From an uncultured Candidatus Berkelbacteria bacterium (GTDB taxonomy: Bacteria > Patescibacteriota > UBA1384 > CAILIB01), in assembly GCA_903834195.1 (NCBI GenBank), contig CAILIB010000037.1, forward strand, positions 19 through 64,018: DNA of 64,000 nucleotides, given 5' to 3'. Position numbers and translations under genes: made by a program. Each line of letters opens with the position of its first letter. The first letter of the stretch is position 1. The notes under the pieces were generated by a model. That model did no database searches. It saw nothing but the letters and a program-made list of their open reading frames with translations, and was not told the DNA's origin. Shown in pieces: positions 5,506 through 63,849 of this stretch.

Positions 5506-6069
5506 ATGATTGCTGCAGTACAAAATCTCGACTTCTCGATTGTGAACACGTTGTCTACATATACAGTGACCCATACCTGGGCCAGTGTTTTAGTGTATGT
5601 TTGTGCTGAAATGCTCATTGCAGTGCCATTTTTAACCTTGGCATTGATGTGGTTTCAACCTGGTCGGTTTACCACCTATAGACCAATTCGCAAGGCAGTA
5701 GTAATGACGATTATGGCACTTACGGTGGCATTGGCGTTAAAGTCGTTGATTGCCTTTCTGATATCGCGGGATCGGCCATTTATTTCACACCCAGACATGC
5801 TATATCTACCATTTAAAGTAGATAGCTCTAGTTTTCCTTCTGGACATACAATCTTGGCCTTTACCATGGCCTTTAGTTTGCTTTGGTCAAAGTTTCAACG
5901 CACTGGAACTACTTTTTTGCTTATAGCGTGTATAGTAGCTTTTGCACGGGTTGCTGCGGGTGTACACTATCCTACTGATATTCTCGGAGGGATTGTTGTA
6001 GCCTTTATTGCAACTTGGTTTGTGTTTCGAGAGGCTAGTGGGGTGAGAGAGTACCTTCCTAATAAGTAG
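5506..6069 (+). CDS. PAP2-family membrane phosphatase (undecaprenyl-diphosphatase-like)
   Basis: Three PAP2 motifs: K..ISRDRPF, FPSGHT, ARVAAGVHYPTD. Multiple transmembrane segments. Confidence 0.85.
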   Translation: MIAAVQNLDFSIVNTLSTYTVTHTWASVLVYVCAEMLIAVPFLTLALMWFQPGRFTTYRPIRKAVVMTIMALTVALALKSLIAFLISRDRPFISHPDMLYLPFKVDSSSFPSGHTILAFTMAFSLLWSKFQRTGTTFLLIACIVAFARVAAGVHYPTDILGGIVVAFIATWFVFREASGVREYLPNK

Positions 6070-6073
6070 TTTC

Positions 6074-6195
6074 CAGACTGTAAGGCTTGGCGTCTTTCTG
6101 TGTTAGAATCTCCGCTCTTCCCTCAACGCACCAGTAAGTACGCCTCAGTCAGATACTCGATTCTGCCTTGAAATACGCATAAGCCTTACAGTCTG
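6074..6195 (+). repeat. Stem-enclosed intergenic element A (member of the CTCAACG-hairpin repeat family)
   Basis: 15-bp perfect inverted repeat cagactgtaaggctt (6074-6088) / aagccttacagtctg (6181-6195). The core at 6122-6174 matches 29682-29733 at 42 of 53 aligned positions. Confidence 0.8.
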
Positions 6196-6234: not shown

Positions 6235-8145
6235 ATGGTTGATTTGTTGAGCGCCTTAAACAAAGAACAGCAACTGGCAGTTCAGACGACGGACGGGCCT
6301 GTTTTAATTTTGGCTGGTGCAGGTTCGGGAAAAACTAAGGCCTTAACCCATCGGTTTGCCTATCTTCTTCGAGAAAAGCGGGTGAGCCCGTACCAGATTC
6401 TTTGTGTAACGTTTACCAATAAGGCTGCCAACGAAATGCGCGAGCGTATTGGGCGGTTATTGGGCGATGAACAGGGTGAGGTGACGCTGCCTTGGCTTGG
6501 AACCTTTCACTCGGTTTGTGTGCGCATTTTACGCCGCGAGTTGGAGCATACTTCGCTCGGGTATAGTTCTCGGTTTGCTATTTATGATGAGGGCGACATG
6601 CAGCAGGCAGTAAAGCGGGCTATGACAGAACTGAATATTGATGCCAAGCAGTTTAATCCACGAACAATTCATTCCCAGATTTCGAGTGCTAAAAATGAGT
6701 TGGTAGATCCAAAAGAGTACGGCCAATTTGCTCTAGGCTTGTTTCAGAAAACCGTTCATGCGGTGTACGAGCGGTACCAAAAGTTACTCCGAGATGCTAA
6801 TGCATTGGATTTCGACGACATTATGCTGGTGACACTCGATATGTTTAAGAAGCATCCCGAGATTCTGGCGAAGTACCAGGAGCTCTATCGGTATGTAATG
6901 GTGGATGAGTATCAAGATACGAACAAGGCGCAGTATTTGTTGATCAAACAGTTGGCGTCGGTGAATCGAAACTTATTTGTGATTGGGGACGACTGGCAGT
7001 CGGTGTACTCTTGGCGGGGTGCTGATTTTCGTAATATTTTGGATTTTCACAAGGACTATCCGGATGCCACGATTATTAAACTCGAACAAAATTATCGCTC
7101 CACGCAGACAATTTTGGACGCAGCTCAGGCGGTAATCACTAAAAACGAGCAGCGCAGTGACAAAAAACTCTGGACCAATGGTCCGGTGGGTTCACTCGTA
7201 AGTGTGGTTGAGTGTCTTAATGAGAAAGATGAAGGGGAGTTCATTATTCGCGAAATTAAAGGACTGCTTCGAAGTAGTCAGTTTACCGGTCTGCATTCGT
7301 ATAATGATTTTGTCATTTTATATAGGACCAACGCCCAATCGCGGTTACTGGAAGAAACGCTCCTGAAGTACAGTATTCCATATCGGATTGTGGGAGGGGT
7401 AAAGTTCTACGAACGCAAAGAGGTAAAGGATATTTTGGCCTATTTGCGCCTCATTTCTAACCCGAACGACTGGGTGAGTATGGAGCGAATTATTAATGTT
7501 CCGGCGCGGGGAATTGGGCCAAAGGCAGTATTGGAATTGCGAAGTATGCCTGGAGGTGATCAGCTCGATGTGGCACTTTTACCTGCTAAAGTGCAAACGT
7601 TCTTTATTATGATTGACCAGTTGCGTAAGTTGGCTGAGAATCGAAGTGTTTCTCAGTTGGTTGAAGAAGTTGCGGTTCGGACTGGATATCGTGATTTCCT
7701 GAAGGATGGCTCTATTGAAGGGGAAAGTCGTTGGGAGAACATTCAAGAATTAGTTGGTGCAGCTCAAAGTGCCGAAGATCTGCAGACGTTCTTGGAAAAT
7801 GTTGCGTTAGTTCAGGATGCTGAAGAATCAGTAGATCGTCAGATTGAATCAGGGGAAATTGACGGTGCGCTCACATTGATGACATTGCATGGTTCAAAAG
7901 GGCTCGAGTTTCCCGTGGTGTTCATGAGTGGAATGGAAGAGGGAATTTTCCCTCATAGTCGTGCCTTTACTGAGAAAAATGAAATGGAAGAAGAACGTCG
8001 TTTGGCCTATGTCGGAATGACACGGGCGAAGGAACGGCTGTACTTATTGTATGCGTTTGAGCGTCGGATTTACGGCTTGCTTCAGAGTAATCCTCCATCT
8101 CGGTTTATTTACGAGATTCCTGAGGAGTTGCGGGAAAAGATTTAG
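6235..8145 (+). CDS. pcrA: ATP-dependent DNA helicase, UvrD/PcrA family
   Basis: Walker A AGAGSGKT, DEYQDT (motif II), QNYRS, and the C-terminal TLHGSKGLEF...VGMTRAKERL motifs. Confidence 0.9.
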   Translation: MVDLLSALNKEQQLAVQTTDGPVLILAGAGSGKTKALTHRFAYLLREKRVSPYQILCVTFTNKAANEMRERIGRLLGDEQGEVTLPWLGTFHSVCVRILRRELEHTSLGYSSRFAIYDEGDMQQAVKRAMTELNIDAKQFNPRTIHSQISSAKNELVDPKEYGQFALGLFQKTVHAVYERYQKLLRDANALDFDDIMLVTLDMFKKHPEILAKYQELYRYVMVDEYQDTNKAQYLLIKQLASVNRNLFVIGDDWQSVYSWRGADFRNILDFHKDYPDATIIKLEQNYRSTQTILDAAQAVITKNEQRSDKKLWTNGPVGSLVSVVECLNEKDEGEFIIREIKGLLRSSQFTGLHSYNDFVILYRTNAQSRLLEETLLKYSIPYRIVGGVKFYERKEVKDILAYLRLISNPNDWVSMERIINVPARGIGPKAVLELRSMPGGDQLDVALLPAKVQTFFIMIDQLRKLAENRSVSQLVEEVAVRTGYRDFLKDGSIEGESRWENIQELVGAAQSAEDLQTFLENVALVQDAEESVDRQIESGEIDGALTLMTLHGSKGLEFPVVFMSGMEEGIFPHSRAFTEKNEMEEERRLAYVGMTRAKERLYLLYAFERRIYGLLQSNPPSRFIYEIPEELREKI

Positions 8146-9290: not shown

Positions 9291-9971
9291 ATGTCGATTA
9301 TTTCACTCACGAACGTTAGTAAGAACTACCTCCTCGATACTGTTGAAGTTCGAGTTCTTAAAGATGTAAACATTTCTATCAAAAAAGGTGAAATGGTGGC
9401 GATTATGGGTCCATCAGGGTCTGGAAAGTCTACCCTCATGAATATGATCGGTCTGCTCGATCGGCCAACCAGCGGTACGCTGAGGTTGGATGGTAAAGAA
9501 ATTCGTCTAACCATGTCCGATAAAGCATTGGCACATTTACGAAGCGAAAAAATCGGCTTTGTGTTTCAGTCGTTTAATTTATTGCCTCGGTTGACTGCAC
9601 TTGCAAACGTCATGATGCCTGCATCATATGCAGGAACTGCTTCTGGAGTGGCTAAAGAAAAAGCAATCGAAATTCTTGGAAGGGTTGGATTAAAAGATCG
9701 TGTAACGCATAGGCCAACTGAAATGTCAGGCGGCGAACGTCAACGTGTTGCAATTGCTCGCGCGCTGATTAATAACCCTGAAATTATTTTAGCTGATGAG
9801 CCAACGGGTAATCTGGATAGTAAATCAGGTAAAGAGGTTATGCAGGTGTTACGTGATCTGAACAATGAAGGTAAGACCATTATTATAATTACGCACGATC
9901 AGACAATTGCTGACTACTGTAGTCGTACAGTACGCATTCTCGACGGTGCGGTAGAGGAGCGTCATGGGTGA
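9291..9971 (+). CDS. ABC transporter ATP-binding protein (MacB/LolD-type)
   Basis: Walker A GPSGSGKST, signature MSGGERQRVAIARAL, Walker [12 protein letters not shown]. Confidence 0.9.
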   Translation: MSIISLTNVSKNYLLDTVEVRVLKDVNISIKKGEMVAIMGPSGSGKSTLMNMIGLLDRPTSGTLRLDGKEIRLTMSDKALAHLRSEKIGFVFQSFNLLPRLTALANVMMPASYAGTASGVAKEKAIEILGRVGLKDRVTHRPTEMSGGERQRVAIARALINNPEIILADEPTGNLDSKSGKEVMQVLRDLNNEGKTIIIITHDQTIADYCSRTVRILDGAVEERHG

Positions 9972-11172
9972 GAATATTCGCACAGCACTTAGTTCGATCT
10001 GGGGTAATAAAGTTCGCAGTTTACTTACACTTCTTGGTGTAGTTATTGGGGTAACGTCAGTTACAACCCTTGTTGCCGTTGGTCAGGGTGTAAAGAATGA
10101 TGTTTCAGGTCTTATTGAAGGCTTGGGAACAAATATTATTACAGTTGTATCGGGCAAAATTGATACGTCAAACTCGGGAAATACAAACCCAGCAAACTTT
10201 GTTTCGGGAGATATTCTTACTCAAAGTGATGTTACAGCCTTACAGGCATTGCCAAGTTTGCAGTCAGTTTCACCAATTGCTTTGGTTTCTGGAGAATTGA
10301 AGGTTGGGGCACTTACCTCACAACCGGTTCTTTTTGGAACAACGAGCAATATCGCACAATCATTCGACATTATTAAAGTTGATAGTGGTCGCATTTTTAA
10401 AGATACTGCTGACGATCAAAAATCTATTGTGCTGAGTTCAATTGCTGCAACTACGTTATTCCCAGGGGAAACCGCAATAGGGAAGCAGGTCACTGTTGGT
10501 ACTGAGGTGCTCACTGTTGTTGGTATTCTAAGTCAGCCAAAATCGAGTAGTCTCTTTGGAAATCAGTTAAGTACACTTTCACTGGTGCCGTTTAATGAGG
10601 CAACTGTACTTAATAAAGGTCGGGTGACTATCAGTCGTATGTATGCAAAGGCATTCGATACACAGCAGGTAAATGATGTGAAGCGCCAAATGCACGATGT
10701 ATTGTTGAAAGCTCATGGCGGGGAAGAAAACTTCACTGTACTTACTCAGGACGATATTCTCGGAATCTTTAGTCAGTTCCTCAACTTAGCAACTGCAATG
10801 GTTTCAGCAATTGCCTCTATATCACTGGTTGTTGGTGGCATTGGAATCATGAATATCATGCTCGTTACGGTTACTGAGCGCACACGAGAGATAGGTCTTC
10901 GCAAAGCTGTTGGTGCAACACAGGGGGCAATCTTAATTCAATTCCTAACCGAGGCTGTAGTTGTTACCCTTGTAGGTGGGATACTTGGACTGCTACTCTC
11001 CTGGGTCATTGCGCAAATCGTTGCCGCGCAAACTCCGCTCCAGCCGCAATTTACTCCGCAAGTTATCGCGCTGGCGATTGGTATTTCAATTATTATCGGG
11101 GCAGTATTCGGACTCTGGCCAGCAATGCGTGCAGCTCGAAAAGATCCAATTGAAGCTCTACGCTACGAATAA
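9964..11172 (+). CDS. ABC transporter permease, FtsX/MacB family
   Basis: N-terminal transmembrane segment, large extracytoplasmic domain, and the C-terminal FtsX-type 3-TM bundle with ERTREIGLRKAVGA. Overlaps the ATPase gene by 8 nt. Confidence 0.85.
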   Translation: MGENIRTALSSIWGNKVRSLLTLLGVVIGVTSVTTLVAVGQGVKNDVSGLIEGLGTNIITVVSGKIDTSNSGNTNPANFVSGDILTQSDVTALQALPSLQSVSPIALVSGELKVGALTSQPVLFGTTSNIAQSFDIIKVDSGRIFKDTADDQKSIVLSSIAATTLFPGETAIGKQVTVGTEVLTVVGILSQPKSSSLFGNQLSTLSLVPFNEATVLNKGRVTISRMYAKAFDTQQVNDVKRQMHDVLLKAHGGEENFTVLTQDDILGIFSQFLNLATAMVSAIASISLVVGGIGIMNIMLVTVTERTREIGLRKAVGATQGAILIQFLTEAVVVTLVGGILGLLLSWVIAQIVAAQTPLQPQFTPQVIALAIGISIIIGAVFGLWPAMRAARKDPIEALRYE

Positions 11173-19632: not shown

Positions 19633-19718
19633 GCCGGGATGGTGGAATGGTAGACACGCTAGCCTTAGGAGCTAGTGCCCGCAAGGGTGTGGAGGTTCGA
19701 GTCCTCTTCCCGGTACCA
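19633..19718 (+). tRNA. tRNA-Leu (anticodon UAG), CCA encoded
   Basis: Cloverleaf read by eye. Acceptor gccggga/tcccggt (G1-U72). Anticodon arm ctagc-CTTAGGA-gctag. Long variable arm. T arm ggagg-ttcgagt-cctct. Terminal ACCA. Confidence 0.9.
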
Positions 19719-19803
19719 AAACAAATAGCGCGTTTCTTTGCTGGTCCTCGCCCTAGAATAAAATAGGGCTGCGGAGGCAAAGAAACGCGCTATTTGTTTT
19801 GGT
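19715..19803. repeat. Perfect 27-bp inverted repeat beginning in the tRNA-Leu ACCA end
   Basis: accaaaacaaatagcgcgtttctttgc (19715-19741) is the exact reverse complement of 19777-19803. The 35-nt spacer holds an inner hairpin gcccta/tagggc (19750-19769). Confidence 0.9.
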
Positions 19804-19950
19804 TCTTTGGTAGGAGAGGACGAGAACCAGGTTCGCCTTCGCCTGAACCTTTCTTTGCGTAGCAAAGAGCGAAGTTAGTGCAACGTTTCTGAACCGCTTC
19901 AATATGAAATGAAAGGTTCAGAAAGTGAGCGTCGCCCTCTTCCGCTCTTG
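19804..19950 (+). ncRNA. Hairpin-rich non-coding segment downstream of tRNA-Leu (candidate structured RNA, strand uncertain)
   Basis: Nested stems: aggttc/gaacct (19829-19850); ctttgc-gta-gcaaag (19853-19867); tttctgaacc/ggttcagaaa (19886-19924); enclosing aagagcgaag (19865-19875) with cttccgctctt (19939-19949). Confidence 0.35.
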
Positions 19951-25225: not shown

Positions 25226-25989
25226 TTCTTGAATACATCTGCCATGACGGTTTTGACTGCGTCACCAACACTGGTCATGAATTGGGCAGGGAAGATGATG
25301 GTTGAGTTTTTCTCAACACTGATTTCAGCCATGGTCTGCAGTGTGCGTAATTGGAGGGCAACTGGGTGGGCGGCGATAATGTCGGCAGCCTCAGCTAACT
25401 TGGTAGCTGCTTGCATTTCACCTTCTGCGGCAACAATCTTAGCTCGGCGTTCGCGCTCGGCTTCTGCCTCTTTGGCCATGGCGCGCTGCATGTTGTCGGG
25501 GAGGGTAATGTCCTTAATTTCAACGGCGGTAACTTCAACACCCCAAGGTTCGGTGTGCTTGTCGATTACTACTTTAATTTGCTCGTTGATCTCAAGTGTT
25601 TGGGAGAGAAGTTCATCCAATTTAAAACGTCCTACTACATTACGAACTGTGGTTTGGCTGATCTGGTTTACAGCGTAGTAGATATTCTCAACCGCCATGA
25701 CTGACTTTTCCGAGTCAGTAATTTGGGAGTAGGCAACCGCTGCAATGTCGATGGAGACATTATCTTTGGTGATGATTTTCTGGGTCGGAATGTCCATGGT
25801 GACGGTTCGCAGCGAAACTCGGGTCATTGTTTCAAGGATTGGGAAAACATAGATGAGGCCAGGGCCACGCTGTCCAACAAATTTACCAAGACGGAAAACA
25901 ACACCGCGCTCATACTGTTTTACAACGCGTAAGCCGGCGAGGAAAAAGACAATAACAGCAACAATTATATAAAAAGCGACTACGTCCAT
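25222..25989 (-). CDS. SPFH/band-7 (stomatin-like) membrane protein
   Basis: N-terminal transmembrane segment. [12 protein letters not shown]..., and a coiled [20 protein letters not shown] segment typical of the stomatin/prohibitin family. Confidence 0.9.
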
Positions 25990-28800: not shown

Positions 28801-29670
28801 ATGCCTGAAGAAAAAGTTACCGAACAACCTGATTCCCCGGCCAGCAAGCCAGGAAAATCCGTTGAAGGACTTACCAAAAAAGTTGCGGCAAAAGTTGGAA
28901 AAGCAGCCCGACCGCTCTTTAAGAAGGTTAAAGATGCGATGCCTGGCAAGGAAGTTGAGCCTATTGAAGACCCAACTCCACTTCGACCGCTTCTTGTTGA
29001 GTTTCGTGATGTTACCAAGCAATACGGTAATCACATCGCACTCAATAACATTTCTATTAAATTTTACAAAGGTGAGTTCCTGAGTATTGTAGGTCCTTCT
29101 GGTGCTGGAAAATCTACCCTTATTAAATGTTTGACTCTGCAAGAACGACCAGATTCGGGTCGTATTATTGTAGCTGGTCGCGACATCACCCTGCTCAAAG
29201 ATCGTGATTTACCGTACTACCGACGTAAAGTTGGTATTGTCTTCCAAGACTTTAAACTTTTGCCTGCAAAAACAGTCTATGAAAATGTAGCATTTGCACT
29301 TGAAGTTTCCGGAACCCCTGGTCGCGAAATTAAGAGTCGCGTAGAAGTGATGCTTGAAACTGTGGGAATGCTTTCTAAGCGAAACAACTTTCCACACGAA
29401 CTATCAGGTGGTGAGCAGCAACGTGTCGTTATTGCACGTGCCCTTGTGCATGATCCTAAAATTCTTATTGCTGATGAGCCAACCGGAAATCTTGATCCAG
29501 TAAATACGTGGGAAATTGTTGAATTGCTCTACAAGATCAATAAGTCAGGTACGATGGTAATTCTTGCAACCCATGATCGCGAAATTGTGGATGCGCTTAA
29601 AAAGAGGGTAGTAACTATGCGAGCCGGAACTGTTGTGGCTGACCAGGAGAAAGGGGTTTACTTAGTATGA
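28801..29670 (+). CDS. ftsE: Cell-division ABC ATPase FtsE with a ~60-aa Lys-rich N-terminal extension
   Basis: [10 protein letters not shown]...[43 protein letters not shown]. Adjacent to ftsX. Confidence 0.9.
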
Positions 29671-29755
29671 GAACCTCCTCACTCAACGTACCAGTAGTAC
29701 GTCTCCTCCCGGTACTCAAATCTTCCTTGAAATCCATTCAAATAAGGAGGTTCTC
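29669..29755 (+). promoter_or_regulatory. Stem-enclosed intergenic element B (repeat family); its closing helix sequesters the ftsX SD
   Basis: gagaacctcct (29669-29679, overlapping the ftsE stop TGA at 29668-29670) is the exact reverse complement of aggaggttctc (29745-29755), which ends 1 nt before the GTG at 29756. Inner hairpin acgtac-cagta-gtacgt at 29686-29702. Confidence 0.7.
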
Positions 29756-30706
29756 GTGAACAGCTTCCTCCGCGTCTTAGGCTATGGTGTACAGGGTTTT
29801 CGTCGCAACCTATGGTTGTCAGTTATTGCAATTATTACACTAACGATGACCTTGCTGACAATTACAGCGTTTACAGTTGGTGATATTGTTGCAACCAAAA
29901 AGTACCAAGAGTTCAGCCAGGACAAGATAGACTATGTTGTCTACATTCAGGATTCGGCAAGTGATCAAGATTTCAATGCGTTATACGATCAAATAAAGGC
30001 GCGCCCAGAAGTTCAAACTGTAACAGTTGTAAGTAAGTCAGACGCACGAATTAAGTTTGAACAGGATCATAAAGATCAGCCAGTGCTACAAGGCTTGATC
30101 ACCGACGATAATAATCCATTGCCTCGCTCGATTGTTGCTCATTTCGTAGATCCGAATAGCATTTCAGTCTTTAACACCTTTATTTCAGCTGATCGATATA
30201 AAGGAGTGGTTGATAGTACGAGTTACAAAGACAATGCGACAAGTATTGATAATTATTTGCACTTCACCAAGATTCTTCGCATATTTGGTCTCTTCTTTAC
30301 CTGCTTCTTTGTTCTGATAGCTGTACTGGTGGTGCTGAATACAATCCGTCTCGCTATTTTTGCCCGTCGTACCGAAATCGAAGTAATGCGCTTAGTGGGT
30401 GCGACCCAGCGCTATATTAGAGGGCCGTTCATTGTTGAAGGTATACTCTTTGCGGTAATAAGTACGCTTATCAGTACGATACTTACAGGTATTATGCTGC
30501 AGCAAATCGATAATCTCGTTCAGCAAACTACCGTTACTGGTCTTGGTAATCAAATCGCACAACTTTTCTCAAGCACAGTTCGGATGAATGGCGTAAGTGA
30601 GGTGACAAGTTTGCTTCTCTATCTCTTCGCAATTCAGCTTATTTCAGGACTTGTTCTCGCTACAATGTGTAGCATGTTGGCGGTACGACGTTATTTGAAA
30701 GAGTAG
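29756..30706 (+). CDS. ftsX: Cell-division ABC permease-like protein FtsX
   Basis: GTG start with an AAGGAGG SD. N-terminal transmembrane segment, ~130-aa extracytoplasmic domain, RRTEIEVMRLVGAT, and 3 C-terminal transmembrane segments. Confidence 0.85.
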   Translation: MNSFLRVLGYGVQGFRRNLWLSVIAIITLTMTLLTITAFTVGDIVATKKYQEFSQDKIDYVVYIQDSASDQDFNALYDQIKARPEVQTVTVVSKSDARIKFEQDHKDQPVLQGLITDDNNPLPRSIVAHFVDPNSISVFNTFISADRYKGVVDSTSYKDNATSIDNYLHFTKILRIFGLFFTCFFVLIAVLVVLNTIRLAIFARRTEIEVMRLVGATQRYIRGPFIVEGILFAVISTLISTILTGIMLQQIDNLVQQTTVTGLGNQIAQLFSSTVRMNGVSEVTSLLLYLFAIQLISGLVLATMCSMLAVRRYLKE

Positions 30707-30770
30707 ATTTTTCAAGTTCGTTTCAGGATTTCCCACTATTTTAGTTGATCGTTAAGCTTGTATTGCACAC

Positions 30771-61753: not shown

Positions 61754-63849
61754 TGAAACACCTTACTAAGTTATTTCTACAGGTATTGGGGTTGGTTTTT
61801 GTAGTAGGTATTTCAGCTCATTCTGCATTTGCCGCCCCCGGCGGTGGTGGAGGTGGAGGTGGAGGTGGAGGTGGTTTGGGTGGCGGCGGTTTGGGTGGCG
61901 GTGGAACACTTATCACAATTACCAGTGGTGGTTCTTCAAACCCCGTAGTCCTTTCGGATTTTCCATCTTTAGGTGCAAGTAATCGTCAGGCTGTTCTGAC
62001 CTATACACTCGATCCGTCATTGACTGCGTGTAAACGCTTAGCGATTTCTTCAGCTGTTGCAGGGGTTACGATCAATGCGAGTGGTGTTGGTGGGGCAGGG
62101 GCAGACCTTGCGCTTGCTGCAGGAGTTGCGACTAACGAAACATTTACATTCTCACTGTCGCAGTTTGCAGTACAAACAGATAGCGTTGGATTTAATGTTA
62201 CGGTTAGCTGTAGTGGTGGAAATGTGAACTCACTTTCTATTATTCTAAGTCGTATTCCAGGTGTCCAAGTTACCGTGAATGGTGGGCAACAAGATATTGT
62301 AACCTCAGTATCAGTGCCAACTTCAGGTTCAATTACTCAGAGTTTTACTTTGGGATATCAAATGCTTGGTCTTGCTACTAACTGTACCCGACTAGGGATT
62401 GATCCTAGTTTAGATGCACTTGGTGTTGGAATTAGTTCCAACCTAACTACTCCAGTTATTATTGACTCTGTTTCACAAGAAACACTAACCCTTACATTTA
62501 CTCCAGGAGCATTGGCAGCAAGTTATAGTATTGCAGTGAATGTATCTTGTGTATTACCAGCAAGTGGAGGTACAGCTGCACGTCAAATTACTCCTAATTA
62601 CCGTCGTATTATTACCTTAAATAATGGCTTGAGTTTAGGGATAAGCATGACAGATCCGCTAACAGGGGCGATTATTTCGGGGAGTACAACGGTAAATACT
62701 GTGCCAGTAGTTGGAACATATTCTGCTGTGTTTCCTCTTACATACTCAATTTCTTCAGGGGCAACAAACTGCCGTCGTCTACCAGTTGCTACACCTCCAA
62801 CTGGGGTTGAACTTTCTTCAAGTAGTTCGCAGCATGATAGTTTAATGTTACAGAGACGGGACTTATCAACTGTTCGTCGTGAGGATGTAACTGTGTACTA
62901 TTTAAATCCAACTGCTCCGCTGAGTTACACCTTAGTTGTGACAGTGGCGTGTGATAATACAACGCCAACACAACAGAGTTTTGCGATTACGCTTAACCGA
63001 CAACAGGCGTCATCTGGGGCAAGTATTCATCTGTCCTATAATGGTCACGACAGTGCAAATGGAGTACTTAACGATAGTTCACTCCTTGCATTACCAGGTG
63101 GTGTAGCAGTACAGCGAAACTTTCAAATTGATTGGACAATTCCAATAGGTGCAACTGGATGTAGCGTGTATCGTGAAGACATGAACTCTCCTACACTTGG
63201 GGTTGGAACTGGTCCACAGGCACCGGTAAACCCAGCGCTTTCACAGGGGTCTGATCCATATTCGTATACTGGATTGGCTGTGACAACGAGTGGGTTAAAT
63301 GCTAACTTTGTCATAAGTTTTTCAGCAGCTGAACTTGCAGTTCCAGGTGCCTATACCATGCGGTATGCTGTGTATTGTTCGAGTGATCCTAATTTGTATG
63401 ATTCAGTTCAAGTTGCATTTGCCCGAACATTGGGTCTGAGTGATGTTGCGAGTGGGTGTGTGAATGGAACGCAAGTGACTATTACTTCTCCTACAACAGT
63501 GTCTGGGGCAAAGCCTGCAATAGTTCCTACATCAACATCTGCATTGCAAAGTATTGCGCAAGCTACAAAAACATTTGGAGTATTAGCTCAACCAGTCGCT
63601 TCACCTGTCCCTGCGTATATAAATACTGACCCAACGATTGTTGACTATACACCTCCAACGGTGCCTGCAAACTTGCCAATAGTTACTGCAGGAACGTGCG
63701 GTGGCGGAACCGGTGGGACCGGTGGAACGGGCGGAACCGGTGGGTCTGGCGGAGGTGGTGGAGGTGGTGGAACTGGTGTAACAAACACAACTGTACTTCC
63801 ATCTTCAGGATGGGATTACGCCGGTGGAAGTCGTCGCTGGAGTCTTTAA
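61753..63849 (+). CDS. Secreted repeat protein: signal peptide, poly-Gly linker, four Cys-bracketed ~110-130-aa modules, C-terminal Gly/Thr tract
   Basis: Signal ...SAHSAFAAP. G11-LGGGG-LGGGG tract. Modules are marked by TACKRL...VTVSC, TNCTRL...VNVSC, TNCRRL...VTVAC and TGCSVY...YAVYC. C-terminal (GGT)4GGSG8. Confidence 0.6.
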   Translation: MKHLTKLFLQVLGLVFVVGISAHSAFAAPGGGGGGGGGGGGLGGGGLGGGGTLITITSGGSSNPVVLSDFPSLGASNRQAVLTYTLDPSLTACKRLAISSAVAGVTINASGVGGAGADLALAAGVATNETFTFSLSQFAVQTDSVGFNVTVSCSGGNVNSLSIILSRIPGVQVTVNGGQQDIVTSVSVPTSGSITQSFTLGYQMLGLATNCTRLGIDPSLDALGVGISSNLTTPVIIDSVSQETLTLTFTPGALAASYSIAVNVSCVLPASGGTAARQITPNYRRIITLNNGLSLGISMTDPLTGAIISGSTTVNTVPVVGTYSAVFPLTYSISSGATNCRRLPVATPPTGVELSSSSSQHDSLMLQRRDLSTVRREDVTVYYLNPTAPLSYTLVVTVACDNTTPTQQSFAITLNRQQASSGASIHLSYNGHDSANGVLNDSSLLALPGGVAVQRNFQIDWTIPIGATGCSVYREDMNSPTLGVGTGPQAPVNPALSQGSDPYSYTGLAVTTSGLNANFVISFSAAELAVPGAYTMRYAVYCSSDPNLYDSVQVAFARTLGLSDVASGCVNGTQVTITSPTTVSGAKPAIVPTSTSALQSIAQATKTFGVLAQPVASPVPAYINTDPTIVDYTPPTVPANLPIVTAGTCGGGTGGTGGTGGTGGSGGGGGGGGTGVTNTTVLPSSGWDYAGGSRRWSL
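61840..61905 (+). repeat. In-frame GGN microsatellite with a (GGTGGA)n core encoding poly-Gly
   Basis: ggcggtggtggaggtggaggtggaggtggaggtggtttgggtggcggcggtttgggtggcggtgga. Confidence 0.9.
63700..63777 (+). repeat. In-frame GGN-GGN-ACN nonamer repeats plus a GGN run encoding (GGT)4GGSG8TG
   Basis: ggtggcggaacc ggtgggacc ggtggaacg ggcggaacc ggtgggtct ggcggaggtggtggaggtggtgga. Confidence 0.9.

Follow-up and report, generated by a model that had tools for sequence, protein, structure and literature searches.

A dispersed palindromic repeat at the ftsE–ftsX junction of a Candidatus Berkelbacteria genome and a possible translational relay across it

How is a division gene translated when its ribosome-binding site is enclosed in a long perfect helix? 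This question is raised by the ftsE–ftsX junction in a 64,000-nt stretch of DNA (contig CAILIB010000037.1, positions 19 to 64,018 of the forward strand; here called the window) from an uncultured Candidatus Berkelbacteria bacterium, where the two genes are separated by a spacer whose ends are complementary and whose 3' end carries the Shine–Dalgarno (SD) sequence of ftsX. The original prediction for this locus, made from the letters alone, took the helix for a lock on ftsX that ribosomes terminating on ftsE, or a trans factor, might open. Here we report that the spacer is very probably a shortened copy of a dispersed, palindromic repeat of about 122 nt that occurs in Patescibacteria and resembles a miniature inverted-repeat transposable element (MITE). 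Overall the locus is best explained, with a probability of about 0.5, by insertion of this repeat together with a relay of translation termination and reinitiation through a short bridging open reading frame (ORF), the helix blocking initiation that is not coupled to the translation of ftsE. The features on which the argument draws are the following, in window coordinates.

28801–29670, plus strand: ftsE, encoding the ABC ATPase; C-terminal ...QEKGVYLV* and a GTATGA end that is kept in all relatives
29667–29759, plus strand: bridging ORF of 30 codons, with an ATGA overlap with the ftsE stop and a GTGA overlap with the ftsX start
29669–29755, plus strand: shortened repeat copy, 87 nt, matched by the covariance model R1 and without 42 nt of the left half relative to the copy in the relative L124
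29669–29679, plus strand: 5' arm of the helix, GAGAACCTCCT, with an anti-SD-like CCUCC; covers the last two bases of the ftsE TGA
29686–29702, plus strand: apical hairpin ACGTAC-CAGTA-GTACGT (arms 29686–29691 and 29697–29702), helix P4 of the repeat family
29703–29707, plus strand: internal CUCCU, in the folding model the alternative partner of the SD when a ribosome occupies the outer 5' arm
29745–29755, plus strand: 3' arm of the helix, AGGAGGTTCTC, the right terminal inverted repeat, which holds the ftsX SD
29756–30706, plus strand: ftsX, encoding the permease; GTG start at 29756–29758, N-terminus MNSFLRVLGYG as in relatives
6074–6195, plus strand: full-length repeat copy, 122 nt, between a PAP2-like gene (stop at 6067–6069) and uvrD/pcrA (start at 6235)

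The ftsE frame ends in GTA TGA with its stop codon at 29668–29670, the spacer covers 85 nt (29671–29755), and GTG 29756 can be taken as the orthologous ftsX start because the N-terminus that it opens matches that of the relatives. AGGAGGTTCTC is the exact reverse complement of GAGAACCTCCT, giving a perfect 11-bp helix, and the ftsX SD (AAGGAGG, 29744–29750) lies 5 nt upstream of the GTG. Direct reading bears out the original account of the helix, the coordinates of its arms, the length of the spacer, the position of AAGGAGG and the inner hairpin; the 3' arm does contain the SD beside the GTG, only it ends 0 nt and not 1 nt from that codon. Folded as RNA, 29660–29770 reaches −29.6 kcal/mol with the 11-bp helix in both the minimum free energy and the centroid structure, at a z-score of −4.35 (0 of 200 shuffles as stable). 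The SD and start codon are predicted to be paired in this stable helix, the partner strand of which lies under the upstream ribosome, and opening the SD would cost 12.5 kcal/mol (predicted probability of the open state about 1e-9); the sequestration of the SD proposed originally holds in this fold. Searched for perfect 11-bp inverted repeats at most 100 nt apart, the window returns 57 overlapping 11-mer matches, against a mean of 1.6 in Markov-2 simulated windows. Grouped by eye, the matches fall into about 17 places, mostly terminator-like; given this excess over simulation the helix is no chance match, yet it is not unique in the window. The spacer is identical in three contigs of the same species.

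Two side observations concern the genes themselves. SD-like motifs stand upstream of only about 10 of the 59 crude ORF starts in the window, and GGAGG upstream of only 4 of 59 (the start assignment being crude), so that a full AAGGAGG before ftsX is unusually strong for this genome. The FtsE ORF (289 aa; 272–298 aa in relatives) opens with a lysine/proline-rich extension of about 65 residues ahead of the ABC ATPase domain (28801–29000).

What, then, is the spacer? Its core had originally been assigned to the same repeat family as a segment near position 6122, and this kinship is borne out by R1, a covariance model for which seven full-length cores, but not the ftsEX copy, were used, which recognises the spacer at 29651–29739 (44.9 bits, E about 2e-9) and the full-length copy of the window at 6088–6180 (95 bits). 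A perfect inverted repeat of 15 bp (CAGACTGTAAGGCTT / AAGCCTTACAGTCTG) encloses the latter, and the 5' arm GAGAACCTCCT of the spacer aligns with the internal cAGAAtCTCC segment of the family. A specific pattern scan of metagenome contigs yielded five further copies (L128, L129, L130, L131 and L133) and R1 added one, in L137. The known total from pattern and model is nine copies at eight loci from at least five sources, two of the copies lying in the window, and four of the contigs with the repeat come from one metagenome. The copies are 87–132 nt long; six full-length ones with cleanly placed ends measure 121–125 nt from outer stem to outer stem. A scan of viral contigs gave 0 matches. A 15-nt core pattern run on genome contigs returned 120 chance matches, the extended motif being present in none, and L132, L134 and 25822–25906 in the window were rejected as chance or coding look-alikes.

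All full-length copies adopt one rod-like fold, composed of the outer stem, a UUUC:GAAA element, the 6-bp helix P2b (AGAAUC:GAUUCU), short helices and an apical CGUAC:GUACG hairpin. Within P2b double compensatory changes are found at 5 of 6 pairs on the sequence-based alignment and at 6 of 6 on the model-based one. Overall 90–91% of cells are paired. Shuffles give 79–82%, none of 500 being as high as the real alignment, and sliding the partners lowers the figure to 23–41%; these values come from explicit pair counting, which replaced RNAalifold since the latter, given a raw MAFFT alignment with misaligned ends, missed the inner helices. Every copy is closed by a stem of 9–19 bp, and the outer stems are diverged yet recognisably homologous (CAGGACTCTCCTGCTTG in L130, CAGGACCTCTGCTTG in L137 and CAGACTGTAAGGCTTG in the window copy at 6074), which on the letters leads us to read them as diverged terminal inverted repeats. 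No copy outside the ftsE/ftsX junction has an SD inside its closing stem.

Several more familiar identities were considered and rejected for the family. Rfam 15 at gathering thresholds matched tRNA-Leu alone, and in permissive E-value mode one full-length copy and the L124 copy returned noise alone (E at least 0.78); without an Rfam match in either mode, a riboswitch, a ribozyme and a known small RNA were dismissed. A promoter reading of the conserved TTGAAA was rejected: in no copy is a -10 box suitably spaced from it, and a scan found nothing near the spacer. An intrinsic terminator was likewise rejected, as a T-run follows only the copy around 6122, and L128 has a separate terminator. Nor is a peptide conserved across the copies, because a 5-nt or 6-nt apical loop shifts the reading frame between them.

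Is the repeat mobile? Exact direct repeats occur at symmetric positions outside the stems in three of the nine copies, with lengths of 8, 8 and 6 bp: in L124 ATGATGAA (at distances of 15 and 16 nt from the core defined by the model), in L128 AAGAAATA (17 and 17 nt) and in L133 AAATAG (16 and 19 nt). By our estimate the chance expectation for exact 8-mers at those positions is well under 0.05; in the other six copies, both window copies included, target duplications are decayed or unclear. Filled and empty sites can be compared at three loci, namely ftsE/ftsX, M23/ctpB and PAP2/uvrD. The M23/ctpB gap is 198 nt with the repeat in L137 and 5–14 nt in L124, L126 and L135, and the PAP2/uvrD gap is 165 nt in the window versus 3 nt in the relative L141. 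Insertion into a pre-existing hairpin was rejected, since the empty ftsE/ftsX and PAP2/uvrD sites contain none. No transposase gene adjoins any repeat copy. The left end lies 0–5 nt past the stop of a same-strand upstream gene in six, possibly seven, of the nine copies (among them window 6074, L124:9874, L128, L133, L137:12173 and possibly L129), and the duplicated targets are A-rich and stop-like, the 8-mers containing or abutting the upstream stop (AAGAAATA|G, AAATAG, ATGATGAA). Target preference together with purifying selection could explain this stop-adjacent placement.

The state of the same junction in relatives bears on what kind of structure the helix is. Homologues of its FtsX assign the organism to Patescibacteria. 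Ten ftsE/ftsX junctions were available:

L126, L127, L135, L136, L139 and the P0005 contig: 4-nt overlap (GTATGA), without spacer or structure
L138: 1-nt gap
L137: unrelated spacer of 161 nt, without a match to R1
L124: spacer of 127 nt with a full-length repeat copy
Window: spacer of 85 nt with the shortened repeat copy

Seven of the ten have an overlap or a 1-nt gap, two have the repeat and one has an unrelated spacer, from which it follows that the 4-nt overlap is the ancestral state and that the helix is not conserved at orthologous junctions. Most relatives overlap directly and carry neither spacer nor equivalent structure, which is largely the outcome that the original prediction had named as speaking against itself; the helix is therefore not a conserved or dedicated regulator of ftsEX but the terminal inverted repeat of an inserted element. 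Its one parallel is in L124, where the same junction holds the repeat closed by a 12-bp perfect AAAACCTCCCTA / TAGGGAGGTTTT helix (CCUCC/GGAGG) with the ftsX SD inside; such a structure is absent from most orthologous junctions. The unrelated spacer of L137 (9840–10000) represents a third lineage with a disrupted overlap; it contains an inverted repeat of its own (ACATAGTCC / GGACTATG, fold z = -2.7), has neither an SD nor a bridging ORF, and occurs only once in the 21-kb locus.

The history of the two ftsEX copies is less simple. A four-point test on 577 FtsE and FtsX columns gives ((window, L127), (L124, L126)) in 500 of 500 bootstraps, so the two lineages that bear the element are not sisters. 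Of all copies, their ftsEX copies are nonetheless the closest to each other: GTACGTCTC is common to both, the agreement of their 3' ends goes beyond the family consensus, and a single gap of 42 nt, which is in frame, suffices to align them. Both have an apical loop of 5 nt, found otherwise in L129, most other copies having 6 nt, and their closing stems (11 bp in the window, 12 bp in L124) differ by one G-C to A-U exchange. The two copies could go back to one subfamily that inserted twice, to a single insertion that was later lost precisely on two occasions, or to a local patch of recombination. As a double insertion into non-sister hosts is possible, the single compensatory pair is not secure evidence.

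If the helix arose with an insertion, how did ftsX stay in expression? A second look at the junction brings out the bridging ORF (29667–29759), which had been missed in the original prediction and offers a more complete route for coupling. Its ATG at 29667 lies exactly where ftsX starts in relatives that lack the element; the ORF spans the whole hairpin, and its own TGA (29757–29759) overlaps the ftsX GTG. In L124 the equivalent ORF has 44 codons (9870–10004) and an ATGA overlap at each end. An 8-bp target duplication that includes ATGA would account for this geometry: in its left copy the stop of ftsE and the former ftsX start are retained, and the right copy would supply the new ftsX start with an out-of-frame TGA. 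The loop length would also matter, as with a 6-nt loop in a full-length element the frame opened by the left ATG would run on into ftsX, and a 5-nt loop gives the phase in which stop lies over start. Overlaps of 4 nt are common in this genome, seven same-strand neighbouring gene pairs being arranged in this way.

We therefore propose the following order of events, in which the steps are modelled from the sequence. The repeat very probably inserted into the ancestral 4-nt GTATGA overlap, its ends pairing to form the 11-bp helix, and the insertion would have been tolerable because the target duplication copied ATGA and so kept both the ftsE stop and an ftsX start. Ribosomes ending ftsE would reinitiate at ATG 29667, as they would have done for ftsX before the insertion, and by translating the bridging ORF they would melt the hairpin and remove all structure. 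On reaching the TGA that overlaps the GTG, such a ribosome would terminate while its mRNA channel still covers the SD, the canonical geometry for termination–reinitiation, and then reinitiate on ftsX; on mRNA not translated from ftsE the helix would hold the SD and GTG closed. Relay and lock together would keep ftsX translationally coupled to ftsE across the 85-nt spacer. The sequences show the spacer to be an inserted repeat, and they show the helix, the geometry of the ORF and the ancestral overlap; we infer that the bridging ORF is translated and that the coupling is a selected outcome; the relay from ftsE through the bridging ORF to ftsX, taken as a mechanism, is a tentative model to which we would give slightly less than even odds. 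Masking of the SD and coupling, as first proposed, remain plausible and are better explained together with the bridging ORF. In operons in general, reinitiation and ribosome-assisted unfolding both contribute to coupling (Tian and Salis 2015, PMC4538824), and termination–reinitiation has been described for short ORFs embedded in structured integron attC sites (PMC8876359).

The simpler coupling model of the original prediction has the 5' arm melted by the ribosome that ends ftsE, and the exposed SD and GTG then used by a free 30S subunit for de novo initiation, without any role for the bridging ORF. It can be weighed against the same fold. The 5' arm begins within the stop codon, so that, given the established footprint of the mRNA channel, a ribosome that terminates there must unwind it; coupling by ribosome-assisted unfolding is well established (PMC4538824); and once the arm is blocked, opening the SD is predicted to cost 6.0 in place of 12.5 kcal/mol, about half. 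The part of the claim that places the 5' arm under the terminating ribosome therefore stands, but the fall in cost is no more than this: in the thermodynamic model a ribosome on the ftsE stop leaves the SD largely closed because it re-pairs with CUCCU 29703–29707, the probability of the open state staying near 6e-5. In L124, where the 5' arm begins 6 nt past the stop, the cost drops just from 14.4 to 9.5 kcal/mol; by geometry the strand that pairs with the SD there would be partly covered by a terminating ribosome and fully by one on the bridging ORF. Direct melting also leaves unexplained why the ancestral start is kept and why its ORF ends exactly on the ftsX start, and we consider it unlikely.

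A more sceptical view holds that the insertion is neutral or merely tolerated: the helix would be nothing but the inverted ends of the repeat, GGAGG would be required of any insertion that survived, neither helix nor ORF would be selected or regulatory, and ftsX would be translated less, or through breathing of the helix. In agreement with this, a closing stem is present in every copy whatever its context, the family consensus end CAGGACTCTCCTG and its complement CAGGAGAGTCCTG already resemble an anti-SD/SD pair, an open frame is common in the repeats, most relatives lack any spacer, and L137 tolerates an unrelated one of 161 nt. Against it, one would expect strong selection to remove a block of 12.5 kcal/mol from the ribosome-binding site of an essential division gene if nothing opened it, and both ftsEX copies retain perfect stems, the correct phase and an in-frame difference of 42 nt. 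On balance we hold a purely neutral insertion to be improbable.

Several observations nevertheless weigh against the relay and the insertion history in which it is embedded. The features shared by the two ftsEX copies could reflect one subfamily inserting twice and not long-term maintenance, and the L137 spacer, with neither ORF nor SD, indicates that strict coupling is dispensable in at least one relative. The homologous frame is free of stops in four of the seven other copies and the phase is right by chance in one case out of three, a combined chance of about 0.2 per lineage, which makes the open frame weak evidence for selection on the ORF. The AGGAG found about 10 nt before the ancestral start in L126 and L127 is GGGG in the window, so that reinitiation at ATG 29667 may be weaker there. 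Lastly, the conserved structure of the repeat is better on the opposite strand, and the hairpin on the sense strand may hence be a by-product.

This last point is the basis of a further alternative, namely that the repeat acts through its other strand, as an antisense RNA or as a single-stranded DNA (ssDNA) hairpin rich in tandem G.A, or else serves as a target for a double-strand-specific RNase that separates the ftsE and ftsX mRNAs, effects on translation being secondary. The inner hairpin described originally is indeed a conserved feature of the family, yet the opposite strand gives a longer version of it with better pairing. Minus-strand folds are more stable by 6–24 kcal/mol in nine of nine copies; the invariant TC/TC internal loops of the gene strand are tandem GA/GA on the opposite strand; A.C oppositions, equivalent to G.U when the other strand is read, number 27 against 4 for G.T; some changes, e.g. 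from A.C to G-C or A-T, keep pairing only on the opposite strand; and in five of five co-directional contexts it is the G.A-rich strand that runs antisense to the genes on either side. Set against these observations, the ftsEX copy has neither promoter-like nor terminator-like signals at its flanks, a G-rich strand will always give the better fold in silico, the known copies number only nine, and neither strand matches an Rfam family. For the window it may be added that GC skew is positive throughout and that 43 of the 59 crude ORFs are on the plus strand. Judged from the letters, the conserved structure may act as antisense RNA or ssDNA, or may reflect strand-specific transposition chemistry; as an account of the ftsEX locus, action through the other strand seems to us very unlikely. 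A combined view, which we rate as quite unlikely, is that the repeat is a functional structured nucleic acid with its G.A-rich strand antisense to genes, homing just past stops (a protein-bound antisense RNA or an ssDNA hairpin of a new class would be examples), and that the ftsEX copies were exapted as a lock and relay fixing FtsE:FtsX synthesis where the overlap had been lost.

How does the family compare with known repeats? MITE-like intergenic palindromes that are co-transcribed in operons include ERIC/IRU in enterobacteria, Correia/NEMIS in Neisseria, and RUP and BOX in pneumococcus; repeats of the ERIC/IRU type are small, non-coding, dispersed, imperfect palindromes with terminal inverted repeats and target duplications, and as hairpins in mRNA they can affect their neighbours. 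The present repeat is likewise small, non-coding and palindromic and lies between co-transcribed genes. It differs from them in its unrelated sequence, its Patescibacteria host, its highly diverged ends around a conserved centre, its invariant asymmetric TC/TC (GA/GA) loops, the position of its 5' end 0–5 nt past a stop in most copies, and, for the ftsEX copy, its location in a former 4-nt overlap of essential genes with the downstream SD within its end. REP/REPIN elements, mobilised by RAYT transposases, are dispersed extragenic hairpin repeats of about 100 nt that also show strand asymmetry. To our knowledge REPINs make no target duplication and have conserved ends around a variable centre, whereas the present family has 8-bp duplications and the reverse pattern of conservation; no RAYT gene was seen, although no systematic search for one was made. 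Literature searches found nothing specific on such repeats in Patescibacteria or on MITE-mediated coupling.

As for the mechanism, tap-repA of plasmid R1 and repY-repZ of IncI-alpha plasmids are the classic cases of coupling through a leader peptide. Those are dedicated and conserved structures, in contrast to the present helix, which is a recent insertion absent at most orthologous junctions. The putative coupling here resembles that studied by Tian and Salis (2015, PMC4538824), in which a downstream ribosome-binding site locked in a helix is opened by translation of an upstream ORF whose stop lies at the downstream start codon or overlaps it. A close parallel is provided by integrons, in which attI and attC hairpins block ribosomes and a short ORF restores downstream translation (reviewed in PMC8876359); as with ORF-11, ORF-17 and the ORFs embedded in attC sites (PMC8876359), a short ORF runs from an upstream stop through a hairpin-forming mobile site between cistrons. 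The two differ in that the ORF ends here are two 4-nt overlaps derived from a target duplication, and that the adjacent tyrosine recombinase is a syntenic Xer-type gene. The attC core sites R''/R' (RYYYAAC/GTTRRRY) are absent, there being no GTTRRRY at the 3' end of the repeat, which reads GGTTCTCG; with no core sites, no integron and housekeeping genes as flanks, an integron attC site was rejected.

Some further features of the region were noted in passing. Downstream of ftsX, an EnvC-like M23/LytM peptidase gene follows in L124, L126, L135, L136, L137, L138, L139 and the P0005 contig, and the sister L127 has a partial M23 match (residues 109–211, 46% identity). By tblastn no M23 homologue was found in the whole 64 kb of the window, where ftsX is directly followed by an S41 (CtpB-like) protease (gap 30707–30770). 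Elsewhere, a perfect inverted repeat (27 bp, loop of 35 nt; 19714–19803) begins at the 3' end of tRNA-Leu (19633–19718) and is followed by a second inverted repeat of 11 bp (19843–19921); these could be a terminator, the remnant of an integration site or another palindromic element. Identical direct repeats of 41 nt (GACGTGCTCTGCACGTCTGCTCACCCTCCCATAAAGAATAA) lie 207 nt apart at 1–41, where the first is cut by the edge of the window, and at 208–248, each followed by a different perfect hairpin (38–74 and 245–279). Long 9-nt periodic runs of the GGTGGA/GGCGGA type at 61838–63783 would encode glycine-rich protein segments.

What the locus presents is a compact genome that has survived the insertion of a mobile element inside the 4-base overlap of two essential, stoichiometric division genes, with the old start codon becoming the head of a bridging ORF and the inverted ends of the element supplying both the SD and its mask. 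The repeat itself belongs to a previously uncatalogued family in Patescibacteria, with a strand-asymmetric and strongly covarying structure, which could otherwise be mistaken for a locus-specific riboregulator. If the relay is true, the junction would be a natural case of translational coupling rebuilt across an insertion, and would illustrate a route by which selfish repeats may turn into elements that set gene expression.

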